The position numbers were made by a program, and so were the translations under genes. Below the pieces are notes generated by a model. That model was given only the letters and a program-made list of their open reading frames with translations. It searched no databases and was not told the DNA's origin. DNA of 64,000 nucleotides from Candidatus Tayloriibacteriota bacterium (GTDB taxonomy: Bacteria > Patescibacteriota > Minisyncoccia > Phycocordibacterales > PALSA-1337). Of this stretch, positions 20,570 through 33,699 are shown piece after piece. Every line of letters starts with the position of its first letter. The first letter of the stretch is position 1. The stretch lies in the NCBI GenBank assembly GCA_903839695.1, contig CAIMDI010000010.1, forward strand, positions 6,703 through 70,702, given 5' to 3'.

Positions 20570-23500
20570 TTATTCTAATACTTTAACTCTTTCTACGATC
20601 ATACTTTTTTGACCATTTCGTTCTGACATTTTTCCTTTAACTGCGATGCATTTGTCAGGCACAAAGGCATTCTTAAATTCAAAGAGTATGCGAGGGAAGA
20701 CAACAGTTTCTAAGTCTCCAGAAAAGTCTGCTACTTTTACAAAAGCCATTAAATCACCTTTCTTTGTATTGATTGGTTTTATTTCCTCAACAATGCATGC
20801 AATTGTAAATTCCTCACCGTCTATTAACGTTTCTTTTGCGTTTTTAATATTCATATCTCTTTTTGATATAATTTCTTTATAGCGATCAAGGGGATGACCA
20901 GAGATATACAATCCAAGTAACTCCTTTTCCCAAGCAAGTTTTTCCCTAATCTCAGCATTTGGCACTTCAGCAAGTTTTAATTGAGGAATCGAAGATGTAT
21001 CTGTCATAAGACCAAATAATGATTCTTGATTTTCTGTGTTTTTATCTTTCTCTTTATTATATGCAAGAATAGTTTCGACATTACCCATAAGAATTCCACG
21101 ATCAATACCAAAATTATCTAATGCACCTACTTTGATTAATGCTTCAAGAGATTTTTTATTTAAATTCCTATCTTTTACTCTATCAAGAAAGTCAGAAAGA
21201 GATTTGAATTTACCATTTCTTTTTCTTTCGTCAATTATGGCTGTAGCAATACCCTGGCCAAAGTTTTTTATTGTTACTAATCCAAAGCGAATAGTATCTT
21301 TATTTTCTCCCTCACGTTTTACCACGGTGAATTGACTAAAGCTTTCATTAATATCTGGAGGTAAAATAGGTATTTGCATTCTTTTACATTCACCAATTAT
21401 TTCTGCAATTTTTTCTACATCACCAGAATCCGCTGTTAGAACTGCGGACATATAAATAGCGGGGAAATTGGCCTTCATATAGGCTGTTTGATATGCTACG
21501 CGACCGTAGGATGCAGCGTGGGAATTATGTACTACAAAATCATTTGCAATAAAATTGTGATCAGGTGGAACTGTTAAATCATACGTCATTTCTTTTGCAG
21601 ACTTTTTTATCGAAACTATTTCATCCCAATATATATCAGAATTAGCTAAATTAATTAATTCCTCTGATTTTAACTCCATACCAATTATATTAATAGTTCC
21701 TCTTTGAAAACCGATTTTATTTTTATCAAAGGAAAATATCCTCTTTGATAATCCTAGTTTTTCCGAAATACTATTTACAGAAATATTTTTTTCAAGCATT
21801 ATTTTTCTAATATAAACTAATACCATCGCAGGAATTATATCCTTTGTTCCTCTTGCGGGATTGTCTGAAAGATGATCAGTGTTTTTCGCTAAAATGATCA
21901 TATCTAATTTCTTTTTGCCAATTAAATGTTTGCCAATTCCACTTTTAAATTTTACTAAGTTAATTCTTCCAGAGACAACTATGGTATATCCAAGTTTATA
22001 TCCATTTTTGTATTTAAATTTTTTATTATGAATAGTTGAAATGATTCCAAGTCTCAGTAATAGATGTTGAGTATCTGTTGATAACTTGTACGAACTAGTG
22101 GCGTAATATACTTGTTGGTTTTTTATACTGATACAACCGTCCCCTTGCCACATTTTACCCAACAGAATTTCCAATGACTCCTTGTTATACTCAAAAGCAA
22201 ATTTAGGAATATATTTTTCCGTTGCTTTATGATATGAAAGCCCCATTTCTTTTATCCATTGAAATATAGAATTGCCGTCTTTATTATTATTTTGACCACA
22301 ATATACAGCAATTGCCGCTTTACTTTTATCAATAGTAAATTTTATATTTTTAAATATACTTGCATTTTTAATAAAATCATTAACTTCATTTTCTTGTTTT
22401 GAATAGAAATAGATTCCATGAGGATGGCAAAAATTACCTTCTGAAATTAAATAACCCAGACTCGCTGCTTTCTCTGGTTCGGAGATTTTGCCGAGTATTT
22501 TCTCTAAAGTTCTTGGTACAGCTATTCTTTGTCCAACTTTTAATTCTCCAAGATTAGTCCAACCACTAAATGTTAGGAATGGATGATTTTCTGTTGCTTT
22601 TATATTCTTGCCAAGTCTAGTCTTTAATTCAAATATATTTTTAATACCGTTTTCCATTACGGCACTTATTTGATTTGACTTAAGTGAATGCTTTGAAGAT
22701 AAAGAAAGTATTTTTAGTTTTAAATTATTTTCATATATTTCCTTCGCCGTGTGAATTTGTCCTGTGTTAGAGTTTACTATTTTTGTATCTCCGACTATAC
22801 ATTTATTGAATCCATACGCAGCGAAAGGTTCAATAAGCTTCCATAATTGATTTGCTTTTGTTTTTGCCATTCCATTTTTTACTAAACCAGAAAGCAATTT
22901 TTCTTTTTGTTCCTCCATGTCTTTGGGAATTTTTTTACCCATAGCCTTTCGGAGCTTATCAGCCTCCAACCAAGAATATCCGCCAAGCTTGATGGCTATC
23001 ATCATAACGTCATCCTGATATGTAATAACTCCATAAGACATATCAAGTATATCTTTCATTCTAGGGTCTAAATATTCTATTTTGGTATTATCATGTTTTC
23101 TTTCAATATATTGAGGTATGGATTCTATCGGGCCTGGGCGATACAATGCCACCATAGCGTTAATATCATGTACTCTAGATGGTTTTAGTTCAACAAGGAA
23201 TTTGGTCATTCCTGCTCCGTTTAATTGAAATAGACCTATAGTCTCACCTCGAGCTAGCATTTCAAAAGTTTTTTTATCATCCAAAGGTATATTCTCGATA
23301 TCAATCAATTTATTTTCAATTTTTTTAACTCTTTCAACTGCATCGGCAAGTATTGAAAGATTTTTTATTCCTAGAAAGTCAAATTTTAAAAGCCCGACAC
23401 CATCTTCACCAACTGCATGCATATCATATTGAGTTATGATTTTTTTGGTTCCATCTTCTTTGCCTTTTGTATCGTATTGAAGTGGTACATGTTCTGTTAA

Positions 23501-25159
23501 TGGATCTGGAGAAATAACCACACCTGCTGCGTGAACAGAAATGTGTCTTGCACATCCTTCAATTTTTTTTGCCATATCAATAATTCGTTTTGTATCTGTT
23601 TCTCTGTCGTATGCGTCTTTTAATTCAGAAACTTCAGTTAAGGCTCTATCTATAGTCATTGGAAAACCTTGCGCACCCATTGGAATTAATTTAGAAATTC
23701 TATCAGCAATATCATAAGGATAACCCATAGCTCTGGCTACGTCTCTTACTGCACCTCTTGCCATCATTGTTCCGAATGTACCGATTTGTGCAACTTTATC
23801 ATGACCGTATTTTTTGCGTGTATATTCTATAACCTCATCGCGTCTATTATCGGCAAAGTCCATATCAATATCAGGTGCCGAAGGTCTTTCAGGATTTAGA
23901 AATCTTTCAAAGGGAAGTTTGTATGCTAATGGATCTACATTGGTAATTTTCGTTAAATATGTAGTAAGTGAACCTGCAACCGATCCTCGAATATTAGTTA
24001 GAATTCCATTTTCATGTGCATATCTTAATAAATCAGATACCACAAGAAAATATTGTGCATATCCTTTATTTTTTATAATCATTAATTCGTATTCAAGTCT
24101 ATCAACAACTTCTTTTGTGGGACTAAGGCCTCGAATGGGAATACCCTCGTATGCCAATCTTTTTAATTCATCATCATGAGATAGTCCACTTTCAACTATG
24201 AAATTTGGAAAATACCATTTACCCAAAGTAATATCTAAATTACACATTTCTGCAATTTTTATTGTATTTGCAATGGCTTCAGGAATATCTTTAAATAATT
24301 CTTCAGCTTTTTCTTGAGAAATGAAAGAAAAATCTTCTTCATCTTCAGAATTATTCATTCCACCACCAGCAGAATTTCTATCAGATATATCACCTGATGT
24401 ATTTACAAGCATTAATGTATCACGAGCTTCTCTATCTTCTTGATGTAAATAATATACATCGTGACCAGCAACTATTGGTGTATTGGTTTGACGTGCAATT
24501 TTAATTAATTCCTGCATAAGATTTTCATGTCCTTGAATCTCTGGATGACGTGTAATTTCAATATAAAAATTATCTTCACCGTATGTTTTTTTGTAAAAAT
24601 TTATAGTCTCAATTGCCTTATCAATATTTTTTGATTTTATGGCTTGTGATATTTCACTAGAAAAGGATGGTGAAATGCAAATTAAATTATCTTTGTATTT
24701 TTCTATAAGTTCTTTATCAATACGAGGTTTGTAATAAAAACCTTCTAGATTTGAATCTGTCACTAATTTGATTAAATTCTTGTAGCCATCATAATTTTTG
24801 GCAAGTAAAATATGGCGTGTTCGGCGATTGTCTATTCCTGCTTGCATATCTTTCCTTCCTCTCAATGCCATGTAAAAGTCTACACCCAATATAGGCTTTA
24901 TACCTTTCTTTTTACATCGCTGATAGAATTCTATAGCACCATAAAGGTTTCCAGCATCAGTTAATGCCAGCGCTGTCATGTTTTGTTTTATAGCTTCGTC
25001 TACCAAATCATCTATTTTAGGAAGGGCATTGAGCAATGAATAATGACTGTGAGTATGTAGATGAATGAATTTGGACATATTACCATTATAGCAAATATCG
25101 TAGGTTATCCCCAAGTTCTTAAGATTTGATAAATTATTTGCAAAATTTGCTATGGACAA
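20570..25159 (-). CDS. dnaE: DNA polymerase III alpha subunit, interrupted in-frame by an intein
   Basis: PHP domain HLHTHSHYSLL. Polymerase core. The conserved GFNK|SHAASY block is split by a 426-aa insertion. OB-fold C-terminus. Confidence 0.9.
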   Translation of the reverse strand: MSIANFANNLSNLKNLGITYDICYNGNMSKFIHLHTHSHYSLLNALPKIDDLVDEAIKQNMTALALTDAGNLYGAIEFYQRCKKKGIKPILGVDFYMALRGRKDMQAGIDNRRTRHILLAKNYDGYKNLIKLVTDSNLEGFYYKPRIDKELIEKYKDNLICISPSFSSEISQAIKSKNIDKAIETINFYKKTYGEDNFYIEITRHPEIQGHENLMQELIKIARQTNTPIVAGHDVYYLHQEDREARDTLMLVNTSGDISDRNSAGGGMNNSEDEEDFSFISQEKAEELFKDIPEAIANTIKIAEMCNLDITLGKWYFPNFIVESGLSHDDELKRLAYEGIPIRGLSPTKEVVDRLEYELMIIKNKGYAQYFLVVSDLLRYAHENGILTNIRGSVAGSLTTYLTKITNVDPLAYKLPFERFLNPERPSAPDIDMDFADNRRDEVIEYTRKKYGHDKVAQIGTFGTMMARGAVRDVARAMGYPYDIADRISKLIPMGAQGFPMTIDRALTEVSELKDAYDRETDTKRIIDMAKKIEGCARHISVHAAGVVISPDPLTEHVPLQYDTKGKEDGTKKIITQYDMHAVGEDGVGLLKFDFLGIKNLSILADAVERVKKIENKLIDIENIPLDDKKTFEMLARGETIGLFQLNGAGMTKFLVELKPSRVHDINAMVALYRPGPIESIPQYIERKHDNTKIEYLDPRMKDILDMSYGVITYQDDVMMIAIKLGGYSWLEADKLRKAMGKKIPKDMEEQKEKLLSGLVKNGMAKTKANQLWKLIEPFAAYGFNKCIVGDTKIVNSNTGQIHTAKEIYENNLKLKILSLSSKHSLKSNQISAVMENGIKNIFELKTRLGKNIKATENHPFLTFSGWTNLGELKVGQRIAVPRTLEKILGKISEPEKAASLGYLISEGNFCHPHGIYFYSKQENEVNDFIKNASIFKNIKFTIDKSKAAIAVYCGQNNNKDGNSIFQWIKEMGLSYHKATEKYIPKFAFEYNKESLEILLGKMWQGDGCISIKNQQVYYATSSYKLSTDTQHLLLRLGIISTIHNKKFKYKNGYKLGYTIVVSGRINLVKFKSGIGKHLIGKKKLDMIILAKNTDHLSDNPARGTKDIIPAMVLVYIRKIMLEKNISVNSISEKLGLSKRIFSFDKNKIGFQRGTINIIGMELKSEELINLANSDIYWDEIVSIKKSAKEMTYDLTVPPDHNFIANDFVVHNSHAASYGRVAYQTAYMKANFPAIYMSAVLTADSGDVEKIAEIIGECKRMQIPILPPDINESFSQFTVVKREGENKDTIRFGLVTIKNFGQGIATAIIDERKRNGKFKSLSDFLDRVKDRNLNKKSLEALIKVGALDNFGIDRGILMGNVETILAYNKEKDKNTENQESLFGLMTDTSSIPQLKLAEVPNAEIREKLAWEKELLGLYISGHPLDRYKEIISKRDMNIKNAKETLIDGEEFTIACIVEEIKPINTKKGDLMAFVKVADFSGDLETVVFPRILFEFKNAFVPDKCIAVKGKMSERNGQKSMIVERVKVLE
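21524..22801 (-). mobile_element. intein (426 aa) with a LAGLIDADG-type homing endonuclease domain inside dnaE
   Basis: Starts with Cys right after GFNK (CIVGDTKI). Block B is GKNIKATENHPFLT (TxxH). LAGLIDADG-like motifs LGYLISEGNF and LLGKMWQGDGCIS. Ends ...FVVHN, followed by Ser+1 of SHAASY. The boundaries are in frame (residues 787-1212). Confidence 0.8.
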
Positions 25160-26089: not shown

Positions 26090-26989
26090 ATGGCAAACAG
26101 ACATCTTTCAAGATCAGTAGTACTCCAATCACTCTTTGAGTGGGACTTTCGAGGTTGTCATAATGAAACTATAAAAGAAACAGTCACTCGTATATCGAAG
26201 GAATTTGCTCCTGGTATGAGTGATTTTTCTTTTGTTCAAGAATTAATAGATAGTATTTTGGCGAAAAAGAATGATTTGGATGAAGTTATTACCAAGGCCG
26301 CACCAGATTGGCCTTTAGACAAAATATCACTTATTGATAGAAATATTTTAAGAATTGGTTTATACGAATTACTTTTTGCAAATAGAGATGAAGTTCCAGC
26401 AAAAGTAGCTATAAATGAGGCTATTGAGTTGGCAAAAAGTTTTGGTGGTGAAAACAGTAGTAAATTCGTAAATGGAGTGTTGGGATCTGTTTATAAAGAA
26501 ATTGGAGAGCCTGGAAAAGATTCTATTTCAAAGAAAAAGAAAAAAATTGAAGATATTCCATACGAACAAATGCCGATACAAAATCTAGGCGGAGCTGTAG
26601 TATATTCTAGACATGAAGGAGAGATATATTTAGCTTTTGTTCATGATATATTTGGACATTGGACTTTGTCTAAGGGTAAAATTCCTGAAGGTGATGTAAA
26701 GATAGGTACAATTGCTAAAATTAAAGAGGAAATGGGATTGGATGTAGAAATAGTAGATGATTTAGGTGATAACGGTTATATTGCAAGTGATCCAGAAAAA
26801 GGAAAATTAAGAAAACACGTTCATTACTTTTTGGCTGAGTCAAAGTATGAAAATATAAAGCTAGCTCAAAAACCTGGTCTCGATGACGCTAAATGGTTCA
26901 AATTATCAGACATATTAGAATTAAATTTCTATAATGATATTTTACCAATAGTAACAAAAGCTATCACAATTTTGAATAAAAAAATATAA
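26090..26989 (+). CDS. nusB: NusB antitermination factor fused to a C-terminal Nudix-fold domain
   Basis: Residues 1-140 form the NusB fold (RHLSRSVVLQSLFEWDF...LIDRNILRIGLYELLF). Residues ~165-295 match a Nudix fold (GGAVVYSRHEGEIYLAFVH; GHWTLSKGKIPEGDVKIGTIAKIKEEMGL resembling the Nudix box; VHYFLAES; AKWFKLSDILEL). Confidence 0.65.
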   Translation: MANRHLSRSVVLQSLFEWDFRGCHNETIKETVTRISKEFAPGMSDFSFVQELIDSILAKKNDLDEVITKAAPDWPLDKISLIDRNILRIGLYELLFANRDEVPAKVAINEAIELAKSFGGENSSKFVNGVLGSVYKEIGEPGKDSISKKKKKIEDIPYEQMPIQNLGGAVVYSRHEGEIYLAFVHDIFGHWTLSKGKIPEGDVKIGTIAKIKEEMGLDVEIVDDLGDNGYIASDPEKGKLRKHVHYFLAESKYENIKLAQKPGLDDAKWFKLSDILELNFYNDILPIVTKAITILNKKI

Positions 26990-26994
26990 ATTCT

Positions 26995-27690
26995 ATGCCC
27001 GATTATTTAAAATTCTCTGAAAAATTAAATGTAAAATTTAATGATATAAGTCTCCTCAAAAGAGCTTGTACACATCGTTCATATTTAAATGAAAATAAAT
27101 CAGCAGGTTTAGAGCACAATGAAAGATTAGAATTTCTTGGAGATGCAGTTTTGGAATTGGTTGTAACTAGTTTTCTTTTTAGAAAATACCCAGGTAAAAA
27201 CGAAGGAGATTTAACATCTTACAGATCAGCACTTGTAAATACACATAGTTTGTCAAAAGTAGCACTTCATATAGGTGTTGATGAATATATTTTATTGTCA
27301 AAAGGAGAATCCAGAGATACAGGAAGGGCAAGGTCAATTATTCACGCAGATACCATAGAGGCTATTATTGGTTCAGTATATTTGGATCAAGGTTATGATG
27401 CCGCAGCCAATTTTATTTCTGAACAATTATTAGAGGTAATAGACATAGATGATATTGTAGAAAATAAAACATGGTTAGATGCAAAAAGCCGATTTCAAGA
27501 AAAAGCGCAAGAGATGACAGGACTAACTCCATCATATAAAACTGTAAAAGAAACAGGACCAGATCATAGCAAAATATTCACATTGGGTGTATTCATAGGT
27601 GACACACAAGTCGCTCTCGGCTCAGGAATGTCAAAACAAGAAGCAGAGCAAAAAGCTGCAGAAAAAGCATTGGAAGTGAAGGGATGGTAA
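26995..27690 (+). CDS. rnc: ribonuclease III
   Basis: ERLEFLGDAVLELVVTSFLF signature. C-terminal dsRBD (..GPDHSKIFTLGVFIGDTQVALGSGMSKQEAEQKAAEKAL). Confidence 0.9.
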   Translation: MPDYLKFSEKLNVKFNDISLLKRACTHRSYLNENKSAGLEHNERLEFLGDAVLELVVTSFLFRKYPGKNEGDLTSYRSALVNTHSLSKVALHIGVDEYILLSKGESRDTGRARSIIHADTIEAIIGSVYLDQGYDAAANFISEQLLEVIDIDDIVENKTWLDAKSRFQEKAQEMTGLTPSYKTVKETGPDHSKIFTLGVFIGDTQVALGSGMSKQEAEQKAAEKALEVKGW

Positions 27691-27723
27691 ATACTAAATA
27701 ATTATAGTGAAATTGAGAGGCTA

Positions 27724-27779
27724 TTATGTTAAAATACTCTTATGTATCTCAAGTCATTAGAGATTTCAGGATTTAAATC
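27724..27779 (+). repeat. diverged direct-repeat copy A (~84% identical) of the smc promoter plus first 13 codons
   Basis: ttatgttaaaatactcttATGTATCTCAAGTCATTAGAGATTTCAGGATTTAAATC aligns with 29073..29128 at 47 of 56 positions. Confidence 0.7.
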
Positions 27780-27798
27780 TCTAATTAATCACAGTTAA
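27742..27798 (+). pseudogene. remnant 5' fragment of smc (MYLKSLEISGFKS + 5 aa, then stop)
   Basis: Its 13 codons encode the same peptide as the smc start at 29091. It terminates at TAA 27796-27798. Confidence 0.6.
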
Positions 27799-27807
27799 AT
27801 TTTGCAT

Positions 27808-27870
27808 AATTCACTGAATTTGGTATAATTTGGTGAATATGTTCACTGAATTAGTATAAAAATAGTGAAT
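27808..27870 (+). promoter_or_regulatory. extended -10 (TGGTATAAT, 27821-27829) embedded in repeated TTCACTGAATT motifs and a GTGAA-N4-TTCAC palindrome, upstream of the DUF4143 ATPase gene
   Basis: Two direct copies of TTCACTGAATT (27810-27820, 27842-27852) and an inverted partial copy AGTGAAT (27864-27870). The palindrome spans 27833-27846. Confidence 0.35.
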
Positions 27871-27883
27871 CTATTAAAATAAC

Positions 27884-29020
27884 ATGAAAATACATAGATA
27901 TTTAAAGGATAGGCTGGTAGCCAGTCTAGGCAAAAAAAAGATACTTATTGTGTATGGTCCTCGACAAGTTGGTAAAACTACACTAGTAAAAGAATTTCTA
28001 ATCGATAATGCCAATAGTGTTTATTATAATTGTGATCAAGACGAGACTCGTATTCTTTTTGAAGAAGCAAATCTAGAGAAGCTTGGATTTTTGGTAAAAA
28101 AATACGATACTATCGTTATAGATGAAGCCCAAAAGGTAAAAAATATCGGTTTATCTTTAAAGATCATTTTTGATAATTTCCCAGATAAAAATTATATAGT
28201 TACAGGATCTTCATCTTTTGATCTCGCAGAGTCTGTGTCCGAGCCACTTACTGGTAGATTTTTCTCATACACGATGTTCCCAGTTGCAGAAGTAGAATTA
28301 TCTAGGGACAAAAATCCTATTGAAATTAGAGAATCACTCGAGACTCGTTTGATATATGGTTCATATCCAGAAGTTATTACTGCACCCGATATTGAAACAA
28401 AAAAAGAAATAATAAAAAATATTACATCAAATTATTTATTTAAAGATATTCTAGCTTTAGATATAATACGAAATTCAGATGATTTGAAAAAGTTATTGCA
28501 AGCATTAGCTCTACAGAGTGGTAATGAAGTCTCTTATACAGAACTTGCACAGACACTAGGTATTGATAAAAATACTGTAAAAAAATATCTAGAAATTTGT
28601 GAAAAGCTTTATATATTATTTTCATTATCACCTTATGCATCAAAAAAGCGTAAATCAATATCAATGCTTAAAAAGTATTATTTTTTTGATCTTGGTATTA
28701 GAAATGCTCTAATAAATAATTTTAATTCACTTTCAACTAGGAATGATACTGGGGCACTTTGGGAAAATTATATGATTCTGGAAAGGATGAAGTATAACTC
28801 CGCAAGAGGTTTTGATCCTATATATTATTTCTTTCGTTCATACGATATGCAGGAGATAGATTTGTTTGAAGATGAGGGAGGTGTGATAAATGGATTTGAG
28901 TTCAAATTTACTAAAGGTAATATAAGTCGTACCATGAAGGATATATTTGATAATGATATAGAAGGTAAGGAATTAAAGATTATTAGTAGGGATAACTACT
29001 CAGAGTTTATTGGAGGGTAA
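27884..29020 (+). CDS. AAA+ ATPase of the AAA_14/DUF4143 family
   Basis: Walker A GPRQVGKTTL, Walker B IVIDEAQ. The C-terminal half has the typical DUF4143 layout. Confidence 0.75.
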   Translation: MKIHRYLKDRLVASLGKKKILIVYGPRQVGKTTLVKEFLIDNANSVYYNCDQDETRILFEEANLEKLGFLVKKYDTIVIDEAQKVKNIGLSLKIIFDNFPDKNYIVTGSSSFDLAESVSEPLTGRFFSYTMFPVAEVELSRDKNPIEIRESLETRLIYGSYPEVITAPDIETKKEIIKNITSNYLFKDILALDIIRNSDDLKKLLQALALQSGNEVSYTELAQTLGIDKNTVKKYLEICEKLYILFSLSPYASKKRKSISMLKKYYFFDLGIRNALINNFNSLSTRNDTGALWENYMILERMKYNSARGFDPIYYFFRSYDMQEIDLFEDEGGVINGFEFKFTKGNISRTMKDIFDNDIEGKELKIISRDNYSEFIGG

Positions 29021-29072
29021 TTCCTATTTTAGTTGTTTAACTTTATTACTTTAATTCATAAATTTTACGAAT

Positions 29073-29128
29073 TTATGCTAAAATATACGCATGTATTTGA
29101 AGTCATTAGAGATTTCTGGATTTAAGTC
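29073..29128 (+). repeat. direct-repeat copy B: the native smc promoter (-10 TGCTAAAAT) plus the smc start
   Basis: Partner of 27724..27779. Confidence 0.7.
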
Positions 29129-31298
29129 CTTTGCTAAAAAGGCTACTTTAAATTTTACTTCACCGATTTCTTCTATAGTTGGTCCTAATGGCTCCGGCAA
29201 ATCAAATGTTGCTGAAGCTTTTCGTTTTGTCCTTGGTGAACAATCCATAAAATCTATGCGTGGAAAAAGAGGTGAAGATTTGATATTTAATGGAGGTGGA
29301 GATGGCGCAAGGGTTAATCGTGCTGGAGTAAAAGTTATTTTTGATAATTCAAAGAGAATGCTAAATGTTGACTTTGATGAAGTTGCTATTGAGCGTGTCG
29401 TGCACAGAGATAATTCAAATGAATATTTTATCAATGGCTCTCCAGTAAGATTGAGAGATATTGTGGAACTTTTAGCTCATGCACATATTGGTGCTTCTGG
29501 TCATCATATTATTTCTCAAGGAGAAGCTGATAGAATACTAAATGCTAATATTCGTGAGCGAAGGGAAATGATAGAAGATGCTTTAGGATTAAAGATTTAT
29601 CAATATAAAAAAGCTGAAAGTCAAAGAAAACTTGAAAAAACAGAAGAAAATATGAAATCTGTTGAGTCTTTAAGACGTGAAATTGCACCGCATTTAAAAT
29701 TTCTAAAAAAACAAGTTGAAAAAGTAGAAAAAGTTCAACAATTGAGAGAAGAATTAAGAAATTTATATAAAGAATATTTTAAAAGAGAAGAAACATATTT
29801 AAAAGATGAAAGAAAAAAGATTGATAATGAAAAAGATCCTTTAGTAAAGGAATTAGCACAACTTGATATTGAAATAGCTGAAGCAAGAAATATTCTTGAA
29901 AATTCAAAAAATCGTGATTCCAAAAGCGATGAGCTTATAAACTTAGAAGGATCATTGTATAAGATTAGAATTGAAAAGGATTCTGTTATGAGGGAAGTAG
30001 GAAAAATTGAAGGAGAAATATCATCAGGAAATCGTACTATTTCTAAAGAAAAGGAAAAGCAAGCGAGAGATGAATTTAAGACTATATATTTAAAGGACGT
30101 TGAGGAAATTGTAAATAGAGTTAGTTTAATAGACAGTTTAGATGAGATTAGGCAGATATTGTCTAGATTTATTTCTTCGCATAAAAATAAGGAGGACTCT
30201 GCTTTAATTGCTGAAATCGAAAAGGAAATTTCTGAATTAAAAAATAAAAAGAAAGATTTTGAAAATAATTTGATTAGAATTACTGATGAAGAAAAAGCTA
30301 GAACACTAGAGTACAATGAATTGCGTCAAAAAATCGAAAGAGAAAAGGATTCAAATAGAGATGCAGAAAAAAATGTATTTAGAATAATTGCTAGACAAAA
30401 TGAAGTTAGAGGAGTGTTAAATGGAGCTAGAACACGTGAAGAAAAGTTAATGTTTGAAGAAGAAGCTCATAAAAGAGAAATGCAAGAAGCATATGCTATT
30501 GTAGGTCGCGAAGCCTTGGATAATAAGGATCTTATCTTGTCTGATGAACCTCGTCCTTTACAATACGATAGATTAAAAAATATTGAAAAAATTAAAGTTC
30601 GTATTGAGGACTCTGGCGCAGGGAATAGTTTTGATATTTTAAAAGAGTATAAAGAAGTTGAGGAAAGAGATATTTTTCTTGCAAAGGAAATTCAAGATCT
30701 CGAAGTATCCAAAGTAAATTTAAATAATATGATTTCTGATTTAGATGCACGTATAGATATTGAATTTAAAGAAGGAATACTAAAAATTAATGCACAATTT
30801 CAACAATATTTTTCTCTGATGTTTGGTGGAGGTAATGCTGGATTAAATGTTATTAGAGAAAAAAAGAGATTGAAAAAATCTGACACCGATCTTTCGGCTG
30901 TACTTGCTGATAATGTTGAAAATATAATTGAAAATGAAGGTGAAGAGGGAATTGAAATAAATGTAAGTTTACCTAGAAAAAAGGTAAAGGGTCTCATGAT
31001 GCTTTCAGGAGGCGAAAGAGCACTTACCTCTATCGCTTTGCTTTTCGCTATTTCTCAAGTAAATCCACAACCTTTTATTATTCTTGATGAAACTGATGCT
31101 GCATTAGATGAGGCAAATTCTAGAAAATACGGTGATATGATTGCCAATCTATCGCAATATTCTCAATTAATACTTATTACTCACAATCGCGAGACAATGT
31201 CACGTGCAGGAGTATTGTACGGAGTAACAATGGGCGGAGATGGTGCTTCAAAATTATTATCAATTCAATTTGAAGAAGCTGTTCAAGTAGCAAAATAA
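29091..31298 (+). CDS. smc: SMC-family chromosome-segregation ATPase, unusually short (735 aa) with no recognisable hinge
   Basis: SMC head N-terminus MYLKSLEISGFKSFAKKATLNF..GPNGSGKSNVAEAFRFVLGEQS. SMC head C-terminus LSGGERALTSIALLFAISQ..FIILDETDAALDEANSRKYGDMI..ITHNRETMSRAGVLYGVTM. The middle ~430 aa are coiled-coil-like with no GxxG hinge motifs. Confidence 0.75.
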   Translation: MYLKSLEISGFKSFAKKATLNFTSPISSIVGPNGSGKSNVAEAFRFVLGEQSIKSMRGKRGEDLIFNGGGDGARVNRAGVKVIFDNSKRMLNVDFDEVAIERVVHRDNSNEYFINGSPVRLRDIVELLAHAHIGASGHHIISQGEADRILNANIRERREMIEDALGLKIYQYKKAESQRKLEKTEENMKSVESLRREIAPHLKFLKKQVEKVEKVQQLREELRNLYKEYFKREETYLKDERKKIDNEKDPLVKELAQLDIEIAEARNILENSKNRDSKSDELINLEGSLYKIRIEKDSVMREVGKIEGEISSGNRTISKEKEKQARDEFKTIYLKDVEEIVNRVSLIDSLDEIRQILSRFISSHKNKEDSALIAEIEKEISELKNKKKDFENNLIRITDEEKARTLEYNELRQKIEREKDSNRDAEKNVFRIIARQNEVRGVLNGARTREEKLMFEEEAHKREMQEAYAIVGREALDNKDLILSDEPRPLQYDRLKNIEKIKVRIEDSGAGNSFDILKEYKEVEERDIFLAKEIQDLEVSKVNLNNMISDLDARIDIEFKEGILKINAQFQQYFSLMFGGGNAGLNVIREKKRLKKSDTDLSAVLADNVENIIENEGEEGIEINVSLPRKKVKGLMMLSGGERALTSIALLFAISQVNPQPFIILDETDAALDEANSRKYGDMIANLSQYSQLILITHNRETMSRAGVLYGVTMGGDGASKLLSIQFEEAVQVAK

Positions 31299-31325: not shown

Positions 31326-33290
31326 CTAATTAACTTTTGCAAAATCAAGAGTTTTTTTGTCTAAATCTGCGGACATTACTTTAAATTTGATAGCATCACC
31401 TAAAGTAAATTTATTTTTTGTTTTCTGACCAACTATAGAATATGTTTTACTGTTAAATTCGTAATAATCGTCACCAATATCGCGGATTTTTATCATTCCT
31501 TCAGATTTTGTTTCATTTTCTTCTACATATAATCCCCATTCAGTAACTCCAGATATTTTACCTTCAAAAACTTGACCAACTTTATCAGACATATATTCAA
31601 CTTGTTTCAATTTCTTTGATTCTCTTTCAGCAATAGAAGCATCAATTTCTCTCGCTGTAGACTTTTCTGCTATGTTTTGGAATTGTACTATTTCGGTATC
31701 TCCAAAGGGTTCATTATGCAAATGTCTTTGAAGAATTCTTTGAATTAGTAAATCAGGATATCTTCTTATTGGAGATGTAAAATGAGTGTAATATTCAAAA
31801 GCTAAGCCGAAATGGCCTATGTTTTTCGTTGAATAAACAGCTTTTTGCATAGATCTTATAACTGCTGTGCTAATTAATGCCTCATGAACAGTGCCTGAGA
31901 TTTGCTTTAATAGGGATTTTATATCATGTGCAGTAACTTTTCCATTTTTTGTTTCCAATTTGTATCCGAGAGCTTTTACGAAATTTGATAAATCTAACAT
32001 TCTTTCTTGATCAGGAATATCATGTATTCTGTAAATCGAACCCGTGTCTTTTTTGCCTTTCTTTTTTATGGAGTCAAAAATATGTTTGGCAACTTCGCGA
32101 TTTGCTAAAAGCATGTATTCTTCAACAAGTTTGTGTGTATCAAGTCTCGGTTTTTTGTAAACACCTACAGGCTTGCCGTTTTCATCTAGTTTAAATTTGA
32201 TTTCTTCTTGCTCAAATTCTATTGCACCTTTTCTAAATTTTTCTTTTTGAAGATTTTTGGCAATGTAATTTAACTTATCTAGCTCGGTAAAATATTGACC
32301 AGATTTTGTATTTAATGAATCTTGAGCGTCTTCATAAGTAAATCTATGATTTGAATTGATAATTGATTTACCAAAGCCTCTTTCTATTACATGGCCACTA
32401 TTATTCATTGTAAACCAAGCTGAAAAGGTTAATTTGTCTTCATTTGGGTTTAAACTGCAGACGTCATTTGATAATACTTCAGGAAGCATGGGTATAGTGC
32501 GATCCACTAGATAAATTGAGCAACCTCGTTTAAAGGCTTCTTTGTCTAAAGCTGATCCTTCCTTTACATAATGACTAACATCAGCAATATGTACGCCAAT
32601 TTCATATTTACCTCCTTCTAATACTTTAAATGAAATCGCATCGTCAAAATCCTTGGCATCAAATGGGTCGATTGTAAAAGTAAGTGTATTTCTAAAGTCC
32701 TTTCTTTTTGGTATTTCAGACTCGATATCAGAAATTTTATTTCTACTAATTTCGCTGGCTTCATTTTCAACTGATACAGGGAAGTCAATTTCAAATCCTT
32801 TTTCCAGAACTATACTTTCCATTTCAGCATTATTATTTCCTTTTTTACCAATTACTTTTATTAATTTTCCTGTTGGATTTTTCTTTGAATCAGTCCATTC
32901 ATTCATTTTTACAAAGACTTTATCACCAATAGATATTTTGTTTATATCGCTTTGCTCTAAAACAATAGATGCATAAGCCTTTTTGTCATCTGGGTATGCT
33001 GTCAAAACTCCTTCACGACTATCTATAGTACAAACAAAAGTATCGCGATTTCTTTCAACTACTTTTATTACTTCTGCAGACAACTGACCATATGAATTTT
33101 TCTTACCAATTTTAATTTCAACCGTATCACCATTTAATGCTGTATTTAGAAAACCAACATCTATCATAATGTCCTTTTCTGTGTTTTTGGGGTCTTTAAC
33201 AAAGCCCATACCCTTACGATTGGTCATTATAATTCCAATCAATGTATTGGCCCCTGTTTTTTGCTTTTTCATTCGAATACTATAACCCAT
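31326..33290 (-). CDS. rnr: ribonuclease R (RNB-family 3'-5' exoribonuclease)
   Basis: Cold-shock/OB N-terminus. RNB motif IDPFDAKDFDDAIS. C-terminal S1 domain VGQVFEGKISGVTEWGLYV. The start was set to the internal Met (MGYSIR), because the upstream ORF extension overlaps rpsP. Confidence 0.8.
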   Translation of the reverse strand: MGYSIRMKKQKTGANTLIGIIMTNRKGMGFVKDPKNTEKDIMIDVGFLNTALNGDTVEIKIGKKNSYGQLSAEVIKVVERNRDTFVCTIDSREGVLTAYPDDKKAYASIVLEQSDINKISIGDKVFVKMNEWTDSKKNPTGKLIKVIGKKGNNNAEMESIVLEKGFEIDFPVSVENEASEISRNKISDIESEIPKRKDFRNTLTFTIDPFDAKDFDDAISFKVLEGGKYEIGVHIADVSHYVKEGSALDKEAFKRGCSIYLVDRTIPMLPEVLSNDVCSLNPNEDKLTFSAWFTMNNSGHVIERGFGKSIINSNHRFTYEDAQDSLNTKSGQYFTELDKLNYIAKNLQKEKFRKGAIEFEQEEIKFKLDENGKPVGVYKKPRLDTHKLVEEYMLLANREVAKHIFDSIKKKGKKDTGSIYRIHDIPDQERMLDLSNFVKALGYKLETKNGKVTAHDIKSLLKQISGTVHEALISTAVIRSMQKAVYSTKNIGHFGLAFEYYTHFTSPIRRYPDLLIQRILQRHLHNEPFGDTEIVQFQNIAEKSTAREIDASIAERESKKLKQVEYMSDKVGQVFEGKISGVTEWGLYVEENETKSEGMIKIRDIGDDYYEFNSKTYSIVGQKTKNKFTLGDAIKFKVMSADLDKKTLDFAKVN

Positions 33291-33330
33291 ATTGCCTTTT
33301 TTTAATAGGTCTGGTAGTATAGCCCCTATG

Positions 33331-33699
33331 TTAATGATTCGATTACAACGAGTAGGAAGAAAGCACGAACCAGTTTTTCGTCTTGTTTTGACTGACTCAA
33401 AAAATGGTCCAAAGAGTGGTAAATATCTAGAAGTACTAGGTTCATATGATCCACGCTTAGATAATAAGATTGAGAATTTCAATATTCCTAAAATAAAGCT
33501 ACATATATCAAATGGTGCTAAACTTTCAAATACCGTTTTCAATTTCCTAGTAACAAAGAAAATCCTTGAAGGAAAAAAGATCAACGCTTTACCAAAAAGA
33601 ACACCTATCAAAAAAGAAGAAGCTAAAGTAGAAGAAAAAAAGGCAGTAGAAGCTCCCGTAGTGGATTCAACTCCAGTAGAAGCTCCAGTTCAAGCATAG
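33331..33699 (+). CDS. rpsP: 30S ribosomal protein S16 (with an A/P/E/K-rich C-terminal extension)
   Basis: MLMIRLQRVGRKHEPVFRLVLTDSKNGPKSGKYLEVLGSYDP. The start was taken at the internal Met. Confidence 0.85.
   Translation, partial: LMIRLQRVGRKHEPVFRLVLTDSKNGPKSGKYLEVLGSYDPRLDNKIENFNIPKIKLHISNGAKLSNTVFNFLVTKKILEGKKINALPKRTPIKKEEAKVEEKKAVEAPVVDSTPVEAPVQA

Follow-up and report, generated by a model that had tools for sequence, protein, structure and literature searches.

A leftover smc start upstream of a DUF4143 ATPase gene: a probable recombination scar at the rnc–smc junction of a Candidatus Taylorbacteria genome

A 64,000-nucleotide stretch of contig CAIMDI010000010.1 (referred to below as the window, whose coordinates are used throughout), which comes from an uncultivated freshwater bacterium of the Paceibacteria / Candidatus Taylorbacteria, carries a DUF4143 ATPase gene between rnc and smc, and the promoter and first codons of smc are present on both sides of this gene. 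The copy on the upstream side is a genuine remnant of smc that comprises the promoter and 13 codons, and the ATPase gene is an insertion into a junction at which rnc and smc were ancestrally tight (about 10 to 60 nt apart). We propose that this scar was probably formed by displacement of the smc 5′ end through homology-facilitated illegitimate recombination (HFIR) at the rnc–smc junction. The upstream 57 nt are most likely the orphaned original, or at least a different allele, and not a transposition-like duplication.

Results

Two copies of the smc start flank the ATPase gene

A direct-repeat search aligned positions 27724-27779 with 29073-29128 over 56 nt, 47 of which were identical (84%), and this was the longest direct repeat within 26900-29500. 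The best ungapped score between the rnc–ATPase and ATPase–smc spacers was 29. When the same spacers were resampled 1,000 times with a first-order Markov model that kept the dinucleotide transition frequencies, the score had a mean of 8.7 (sd 1.3) and a maximum of 16. Each copy consists of the motif TGYTAAAAT, 6 nt and then the ATG plus 13 codons encoding MYLKSLEISGFKS. The extended -10 element reads TGTTAAAAT in the upstream copy (27727-27735) and TGCTAAAAT in the downstream copy (29076-29084), and a promoter scan scored both boxes as TG-extended and promoter-like. A 17-nt core, AAGTCATTAGAGATTTC, is identical and central in the two copies. The motif TTCACTGAAT was not enriched elsewhere in the window, and neither a further smc-like relic nor a second DUF4143 gene was found within its 64 kb. 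Nine independent metagenome assemblies, drawn from different samples, matched the region 27600-29250 (1.65 kb) with 100% identity, and a tenth showed two mismatches; therefore, the repeat is not an assembly artefact.

The downstream copy (29073..29129, plus strand) was recognised by the repeat search, the promoter scan and orthologue comparison as the functional smc promoter with the first 13 codons, and it runs into an intact smc. The upstream copy (27724..27780, plus strand) corresponds to smc positions -18 to +39, that is, the extended -10, an ATG at 27742 and 13 codons. Its promoter, as found by the promoter scan (27707..27735, plus strand), is composed of GTGAAA, 17 nt and TAAAAT with an upstream TG. 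This promoter ends 6 nt before the relic ATG, the same geometry as is seen before smc in close relatives, and the geometry suggests a leaderless design. Direct reading of the sequence gave a mini-ORF, MYLKSLEISGFKSLINHS (27742..27798, plus strand), which starts at the relic ATG and terminates at a TAA at 27796-27798.

The end of the relic was set against 32 distinct orthologues of the smc start, taken from species whose SMC is at least 75% identical. Position +40 was the first at which the upstream copy violated an invariant orthologue column; the true break accordingly falls after +39, at 27780|27781, where the upstream copy stops abruptly, and the relic is 57 nt long (27724-27780, matching 29073-29129). 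On the left, similarity reaches to -18, which is also where promoter conservation among the relatives starts. The relic ATG lies 51 nt after the rnc stop, which is the ancestral position of the smc start.

The ATPase gene was inserted at a general hot spot

The conserved left flank of the junction is rnc (26995..27690, plus strand), which encodes an RNase III of 231 aa with matches to Pfam Ribonucleas_3_3, Ribonuclease_3 and dsrm. The conserved right flank is an smc-like gene (29091..31298, plus strand) encoding 735 aa, of which residues 2-719 match SMC_N. The junction was compared with that of relatives in the Paceibacteria, which belong to the Candidate Phyla Radiation, using 80 loci fetched around smc from species-representative genomes and another 80 fetched around rnc from metagenomes. 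In the genome set, rnc was located upstream of smc in 71 of the 80 loci, and an smc start was present downstream of rnc in 68 of the 80 metagenome loci. The order nusB-rnc-smc was conserved wherever the contigs of the relatives extended that far. Among the 139 loci showing both gene ends, 64 had an rnc–smc gap of 65 nt or less, an empty site. No relative of the ATPase was detected in the flanks of any of the 160 fetched loci (tblastn, 1e-5). Because none of the 160 loci carries the ATPase gene and 64 of the 139 gaps are this short, the ATPase gene is considered an insertion.

In 65 of the 139 loci, the gap was 151 to 3,641 nt long and held unrelated cargo. This cargo included a DUF3800 protein (L011), prepilin-type LamG proteins (L018 and L078), a tail-fibre-like Peptidase_S74 protein (L025) and a PG_binding protein (L041). 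PADLOC gave no matches for the other cargo of the junction except generic HTH, and no integrase or mobile-element genes were present among the gap ORFs examined. Since the 139 loci include both empty sites (64) and sites occupied by more than 150 nt (65) and the cargo is diverse, the junction qualifies as a hot spot. Thus, what recurs is the site and not the ATPase gene, and the rnc–smc junction is a general hot spot.

The sequence-only reading that preceded this analysis had reported an 84% repeat with an extended -10, an ATG and 13 codons for the same peptide in both copies and a stop at 27796 in the upstream one, and it had taken rnc–smc adjacency to be ancestral. The resampled scores, the direct reading, the empty sites and the conserved gene order agree with each of these statements.

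A family of small proteins rich in Cys (CxCxCH...CCExxPC...H..C..C, present once or as two repeats), for which no Pfam match was obtained, was encountered in or near the rnc–smc gap in at least eight species (L013 5604-5861, L024 3949-4323 and L079 2229-2453; also L028, L038, L039, L081 and L083). In L038, rnc was not detected, so the placement of the Cys-rich gene in the gap applies to the other loci. This family may be an older resident of the junction. Besides, in two species (L079 2152-2170 and 2568-2586; L081 5496-5514 and 5970-5988), a perfect 19-nt palindrome, ACAGAGGTGACACCTCTGT, follows the rnc stop directly and recurs shortly before the smc ATG. In these two species, the pair brackets an insert of roughly 400 nt with the Cys-rich gene; none of the other 178 loci has the palindrome.

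The two copies differ as alleles of different species do

The identity of 47/56 between the two copies is at the level seen between species. The smc start of L021 matched both copies at 48 of 56 positions, that of L011 matched the upstream copy at 47 of 56 and that of L015 matched the downstream copy at 48 of 56. Ten differences were counted within -18 to +39, five of which fall in the 39 coding nt and are all synonymous. The probability of an all-synonymous outcome by random substitution was about 0.0002-0.0004 if five changes were made and about 0.2% if there were four. The 25 columns that were at least 90% conserved among the 32 orthologues contained none of the ten differences, and in every differing column both bases were present among functional orthologues. 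The ATG, the extended -10 and the spacing of the relic are intact, unlike those of the decayed relic in L019 described below. The left limit at -18 coincides with the edge of promoter conservation, as expected if two diverged alleles are compared.

Because their identity is at the interspecies level, their coding changes are synonymous only and their differences fall at variable columns, the copies are not fresh duplicates. Judged by this pattern, both have the look of functional alleles whose divergence took place under selection and which came together recently, rather than a duplicate and its product of neutral decay.

Other smc relics occur at the same junction

Two further cases of a leftover smc start were found among the relatives. 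In L019 (with the same arrangement in L105), a decayed smc start, in which the ATG has become ATA and several nonsynonymous changes are present, precedes the real smc start by about 420 nt and retains similarity to about +50; a hairpin and an unrelated 96-aa ORF on the minus strand lie between them. The gapped score of this relic was 20, against a shuffle maximum of 14. In L024, the promoter and the first 19 nt of smc were copied together with the start of a divergent minus-strand gene, and this relic flanks a Cys-rich gene and one more gene (score 33 against a maximum of 14). The break points of the three relics differ (+39, about +50 and +19) and so does the cargo; therefore, the footprint is neither site-specific nor tied to DUF4143.

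The ATPase gene travels with its promoter and without smc sequence

The inserted gene (27884..29020, plus strand) encodes an ATPase-nuclease of 378 aa with AAA_14 (E 3e-28) and DUF4143 (E 9e-37) domains. It was matched by the PADLOC candidate defence family PDC-S01 (PDLC04789, E 2.3e-132) over residues 1-376 of 378. Walker A residues G30, K31 and T32, Walker B residues D80 and E81, and the PD-(D/E)XK catalytic residues D326 and K341 of a D...ExK motif were invariant in 18 homologues, and E339 of this motif was nearly invariant. An AlphaFold model of the protein had a pLDDT of 88.5, and the nearest solved folds were those of a Pyrococcus Walker-type ATPase, STAND and ORC/Cdc6 ATPases; no sequence relatives were found in the PDB. 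DUF4143 belongs to the PD-(D/E)XK superfamily and its function is unknown (PMC3424549). PDC-S01, in which an ATPase is fused to a PD-(D/E)XK domain, is reported to be among the commonest candidate defence systems (PMC12988326). For most PDC systems in the core defensome, validation is pending, and nothing specific to PDC-S01 was reported there (PMC12988326). The gene is thus regarded, from its domains and family match, as a candidate anti-phage defence gene.

The ATPase ORF is preceded by a regulatory block (27781..27883, plus strand) that was delimited by homology to other ATPase loci and by the promoter scan. It contains a -35 element TTTGCA at 27801, a TG-extended -10 TATAAT at 27824-27829 and a second -10-like box TATAAA at 27854-27859. 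Two operator-like inverted repeats are present, ATTCAC-N18-GTGAAT at 27809-27838 and GTTCAC-N18-GTGAAT at 27841-27870. These tandem TTCAC-N18-GTGAA repeats each enclose one -10-like box and are conserved in six loci (the window, L091, L092, L094, L095 and L097), in which the conservation covers the -35, the -10 TATAAT and both inverted repeats. The double operator suggests autoregulation in this subgroup of PDC-S01. No mention of a double operator in a PDC-S01 promoter was found in the literature cited here.

At the nucleotide level, homology of the window with L091, L092/L093 and L094 extends from 27801-27809 to about 29000-29013 with 74-82% identity and thereby spans only the promoter/operator and the ORF. 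A weaker similarity of the leader (consensus CTnGTTATCCACA) reaches 27781, so that the conserved block abuts the relic. The sequence after the ATPase stop showed no conservation with the other ATPase loci. From these alignments, the travelling unit appears to consist of the promoter/operator region (roughly 100 nt) plus the ORF. The 52-nt spacer that separates the ATPase stop from the functional smc promoter (29021..29072, plus strand), the 33 nt after rnc and the cassette leader gave only chance-level matches of 13-21 nt (mostly 13-14) in the loci of 160 relatives, and blastn-short searches with the spacer returned nothing above chance level (E at or below about 0.06).

The closest homologues of the ATPase (76-87% aa identity) occupy six other genomic contexts: downstream of an RNase J-like gene (L091); behind adk-map, where the ribosomal protein cluster ends (L092); with unknown genes on one side and a PG_binding gene on the other (L094); downstream of HIT or HD_3 and before a 47-aa ORF and a methyltransferase gene, near a diversity-generating retroelement (L095, L097 and L183); between tig and clpP (L181); and immediately upstream of ligA, beside a HepT/MNT pair (L186 and L187). 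Close homologues in six other contexts indicate that the gene moves between genomes. At eight other ATPase loci representing these contexts, no flanking repeats were detected (scores of 8-12 against shuffle maxima of 12-16, compared with 29 in the window), and no smc-like sequence was present near the other ATPase loci. A search of the insert itself showed that the ATPase is the only ORF of its 1.3 kb; no recombinase domain was encoded in 27781-29072, and neither a transposase nor terminal inverted repeats were found at the insert. A viral carrier was considered and rejected, the number of close ATPase relatives in viral contigs being zero.

The two homologues P0008 and P0009 differ in their upstream neighbour (HIT in one and HD_3 in the other) and share the downstream genes; this arrangement in L095 and L097 marks the left edge of the cassette as a point of recombination. 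Both have a diversity-generating retroelement (bAvd + RVT_1) a few kb upstream (L095 1833-3282; L097 829-3274). The gene call of the closest homologue, P0002 (L091 4962-6098), is truncated at 365 aa, and an in-frame ATGAAAATA 39 nt upstream restores the full 378 aa. The L091 contig ends 74 nt after the ATPase gene, at a TGATAAAAT promoter-like motif.

These comparisons bear on the remaining statements of the sequence-only reading. Its description of the 1.35-kb interval as holding the ATPase gene with its own promoter/operator and nothing else agrees with the single ORF and with the leader shared by six loci. It had further proposed insertion with duplication of the target: the insertion is sustained by the absence of the ATPase from all 160 loci, and duplication by the insertion is disfavoured by the interspecies-level identity of the copies and by the position of their differences at neutral sites. 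Its suggestion that the repeat might be evidence of self-mobility of DUF4143 genes is not supported, as relics flank unrelated cargo in L019/L105 and L024 and eight other ATPase loci lack the repeat. The similar flanking duplications that it had proposed to look for at other DUF4143 copies were seen at none of these eight loci, and the window offers no second copy.

Junction hairpin and neighbouring genes

A blastn self-match revealed a perfect inverted repeat, ATTAGAGATTT / AAATCTCTAAT, whose 11-bp arms enclose an 8-nt loop and which crosses the junction of relic and cassette (27756..27785, no strand assigned). Its DNA fold had an energy of -7.2 kcal/mol (z = -3.8), and none of 200 shuffles was equally stable. 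The hairpin could be due to chance, a trace of microhomology or a transcript hairpin, and snap-back templated synthesis was considered as a possible origin. The right arm overlaps the conserved left block of the cassette; therefore, there are no extra inserted bases to explain.

The extended -10 of smc ends only 6 nt before the ATG (29076-29093), leaving no room for a ribosome-binding site. Read from this spacing, the smc mRNA may well be leaderless. This leaderless-type promoter is conserved in the close relatives compared, with L079 and L081 differing. The SMC-like protein is only 735 aa long, and a similar length was found in all 80 relatives, whose orthologues are 58-85% identical; Pfam did not detect an SMC hinge domain in the 735-aa protein. 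Elsewhere in the window, a 1,529-aa DnaE-like ORF (20570-25159, minus strand) seems, from its translation, to contain an intein-like insert that starts with CIVGDTKI and ends with VVHNS. An RNase R ORF (31326-33611, minus strand), which is 761 aa long from a TTG, overlaps the rpsP ORF (33292-33699, plus strand); gene calls in metagenomes give an RNase R of 654 aa, indicating that the real start is further downstream.

Discussion

Displacement of the smc 5′ end as the favoured explanation

We infer the recombination route, and which of the two copies was resident, as follows. Incoming DNA from a related lineage would have carried the cassette, the spacer, an smc promoter and the 5′ part of smc, in this order. 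Its right end would have been integrated by homologous recombination inside smc, and its left end would have been joined illegitimately at +39 of the resident smc, at 27780|27781. The resident promoter and 13 codons would thereby have been pushed upstream, and the incoming smc start would now serve the gene. This displacement is favoured because the right side is seamless, the left join is abrupt, the copies are allele-like, and relics at the same junction show variable break points and unrelated cargo. A possible 5-nt microhomology at the join (AATCT) is weakly suggested by the cassette flank of L094.

Several observations weigh against this displacement. The donor arrangement that it calls for, an ATPase gene directly upstream of smc with no relic, was found in no collection, nor at the loci of nine of the closest homologues. 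A foreign tract in the 5′ part of smc was not detected by sliding comparisons of amino acids and synonymous codons; the head domain is too conserved at the amino acid level for mosaic detection, and the synonymous sites are near saturation, with a weak, non-significant dip in codons 1-40 in comparison with L012. In two independent contexts, the position of the conserved left edge of the cassette agrees to within about 10 nt, and such a near-fixed edge might point to an element with a defined end. Of the four coding differences that the 56-nt repeat includes (a fifth, at +39, is just outside), three show the majority state of the close relatives in the upstream copy; a frozen relic beside an evolving functional copy would be expected to give the same pattern.

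No closer relative with an empty or intermediate site was found in the genome scan, which reached up to 85% SMC and up to 94% Rnc identity, or in the metagenomes, which reached up to 86% Rnc identity. Exact protein matches led only to the same strain with the same arrangement.

Alternative explanations

The explanation closest to that of the sequence-only reading is that the insertion duplicated about 57 nt of its target in place, by a staggered break with fill-in or by a replication error, and that the copies then diverged to 84%. Direct repeats in the same orientation do flank the insert exactly, the upstream copy does stand at the ancestral distance from rnc, and at three of the four coding differences inside the 56-nt repeat it has the state common in the relatives. 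Against this, the identity of the copies is no higher than that between species, and a neutral relic should have gained nonsynonymous or disruptive changes, as in L019, when in fact none of the ten differences touches a conserved column. Terminal inverted repeats and a transposase are lacking, and the other ATPase loci have no repeats. A length of 57 nt also far exceeds target duplications of the transposase type. We therefore regard duplication in place as unlikely. Somewhat less probable still is a single crossover of the Campbell type, in which a circular DNA with the cassette and a roughly 57-nt smc 5′ fragment from a related genome would have recombined within the 17-nt core, leaving hybrid copies. 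Diverged homologous direct repeats around an insert, with the identical AAGTCATTAGAGATTTC at their centre, are what such a crossover would leave, and the allele-like differences fit it equally well. However, a circular or viral carrier did not turn up (viral contigs held no relatives), and the cassette occurs in other contexts without smc-like sequence. Besides, 17 identical nt are very short for a RecA-type crossover.

An identical core, diverged arms and a restored 5′ end of the target gene are also features expected of site-specific integration, in which the cassette would depend on an integrase, use an att site mimicking the smc start and leave the copies as attL and attR. This possibility is largely refuted and has only a slight probability, as the 1.3-kb insert encodes no recombinase, the relics of L019 and L024 break elsewhere (about +50 and +19) beside unrelated cargo, the six other contexts have neither repeats nor smc-like sequence, and the cargo of the junction is heterogeneous. 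A similarly slight probability is given to the idea that the ATPase-nuclease cassette spreads itself like a free-standing homing endonuclease gene. In genomes that lack the cassette, its PD-(D/E)XK nuclease would make breaks close to the 5′ ends of conserved genes; repair of these breaks on a template with the cassette would copy in both the cassette and the start of the adjoining gene, producing a 5′-end displacement scar. The near-fixed left edge and the copies adjoining the core genes smc, ligA, map and tig/clpP are compatible with homing of this kind and do not demonstrate it. Chance similarity in AT-rich DNA, to which the G+C content of the window (32.7%) might lend itself, or mis-assembly has a negligible probability: both were rejected, by the resampling (29 against a maximum of 16) and by the nine identical independent assemblies, and the 13-codon peptide is identical as well.

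Relation to known systems

HFIR displacement that leaves orphaned gene fragments has been proposed for the orphan immunity genes of the Vibrio cholerae T6SS and for Rhs/CDI 3′ fragments (PMC5361080). The scar in the window shares with those cases an end that is anchored in a conserved gene and another that is joined without homology, a displaced resident segment that survives as an orphan with a short stretch of a conserved gene, and a locus that has been hit repeatedly with different cargo. It differs in that the 5′ end of the housekeeping gene smc was displaced here, in place of a toxin 3′ end or an immunity gene, and in that the host is an uncultivated member of the Candidate Phyla Radiation for which the route is deduced from sequence only.

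Integration hot spots flanked by core genes are a general concept of bacterial pangenomes. The rnc–smc junction resembles them in that rnc and smc bracket different accessory genes and the site is empty in many species; in contrast, its inserts are mostly single genes of 0.2-3.6 kb, and the genomes are very small. Target-site duplications of transposons and att sites likewise consist of direct repeats that flank an inserted gene. Transposition duplications have a short length fixed by the transposase and are identical when created, whereas the repeat described here is 57 nt long with 84% identity, has no terminal inverted repeats, transposase or integrase, and belongs to a set of relics with variable break points. 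The ATPase shares with PDC-S01 a full-length match, the fusion of an ATPase to a PD-(D/E)XK domain, the single-gene unit and frequent transfer, and the copy in the window differs by the conserved double operator in its promoter.

The event is thus of a known kind and cleanly documented: a candidate defence gene in a core-gene hot spot, accompanied by an end-displacement scar. To our knowledge, such insertion events have rarely been dissected in this uncultivated lineage. A tempting over-reading is corrected by the comparison: the scar is no proof of self-mobility of DUF4143 genes. As by-products of possible use, the analysis yields the double operator TTCAC-N18-GTGAA of a PDC-S01 subgroup and the design of a putatively leaderless smc promoter. 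Above all, the locus provides a clean example, dated by decay, of how single accessory genes enter the tiny, gene-dense genomes of the Candidate Phyla Radiation, by a route that appears to displace the start of the neighbouring gene and to dispense with a mobile-element enzyme.

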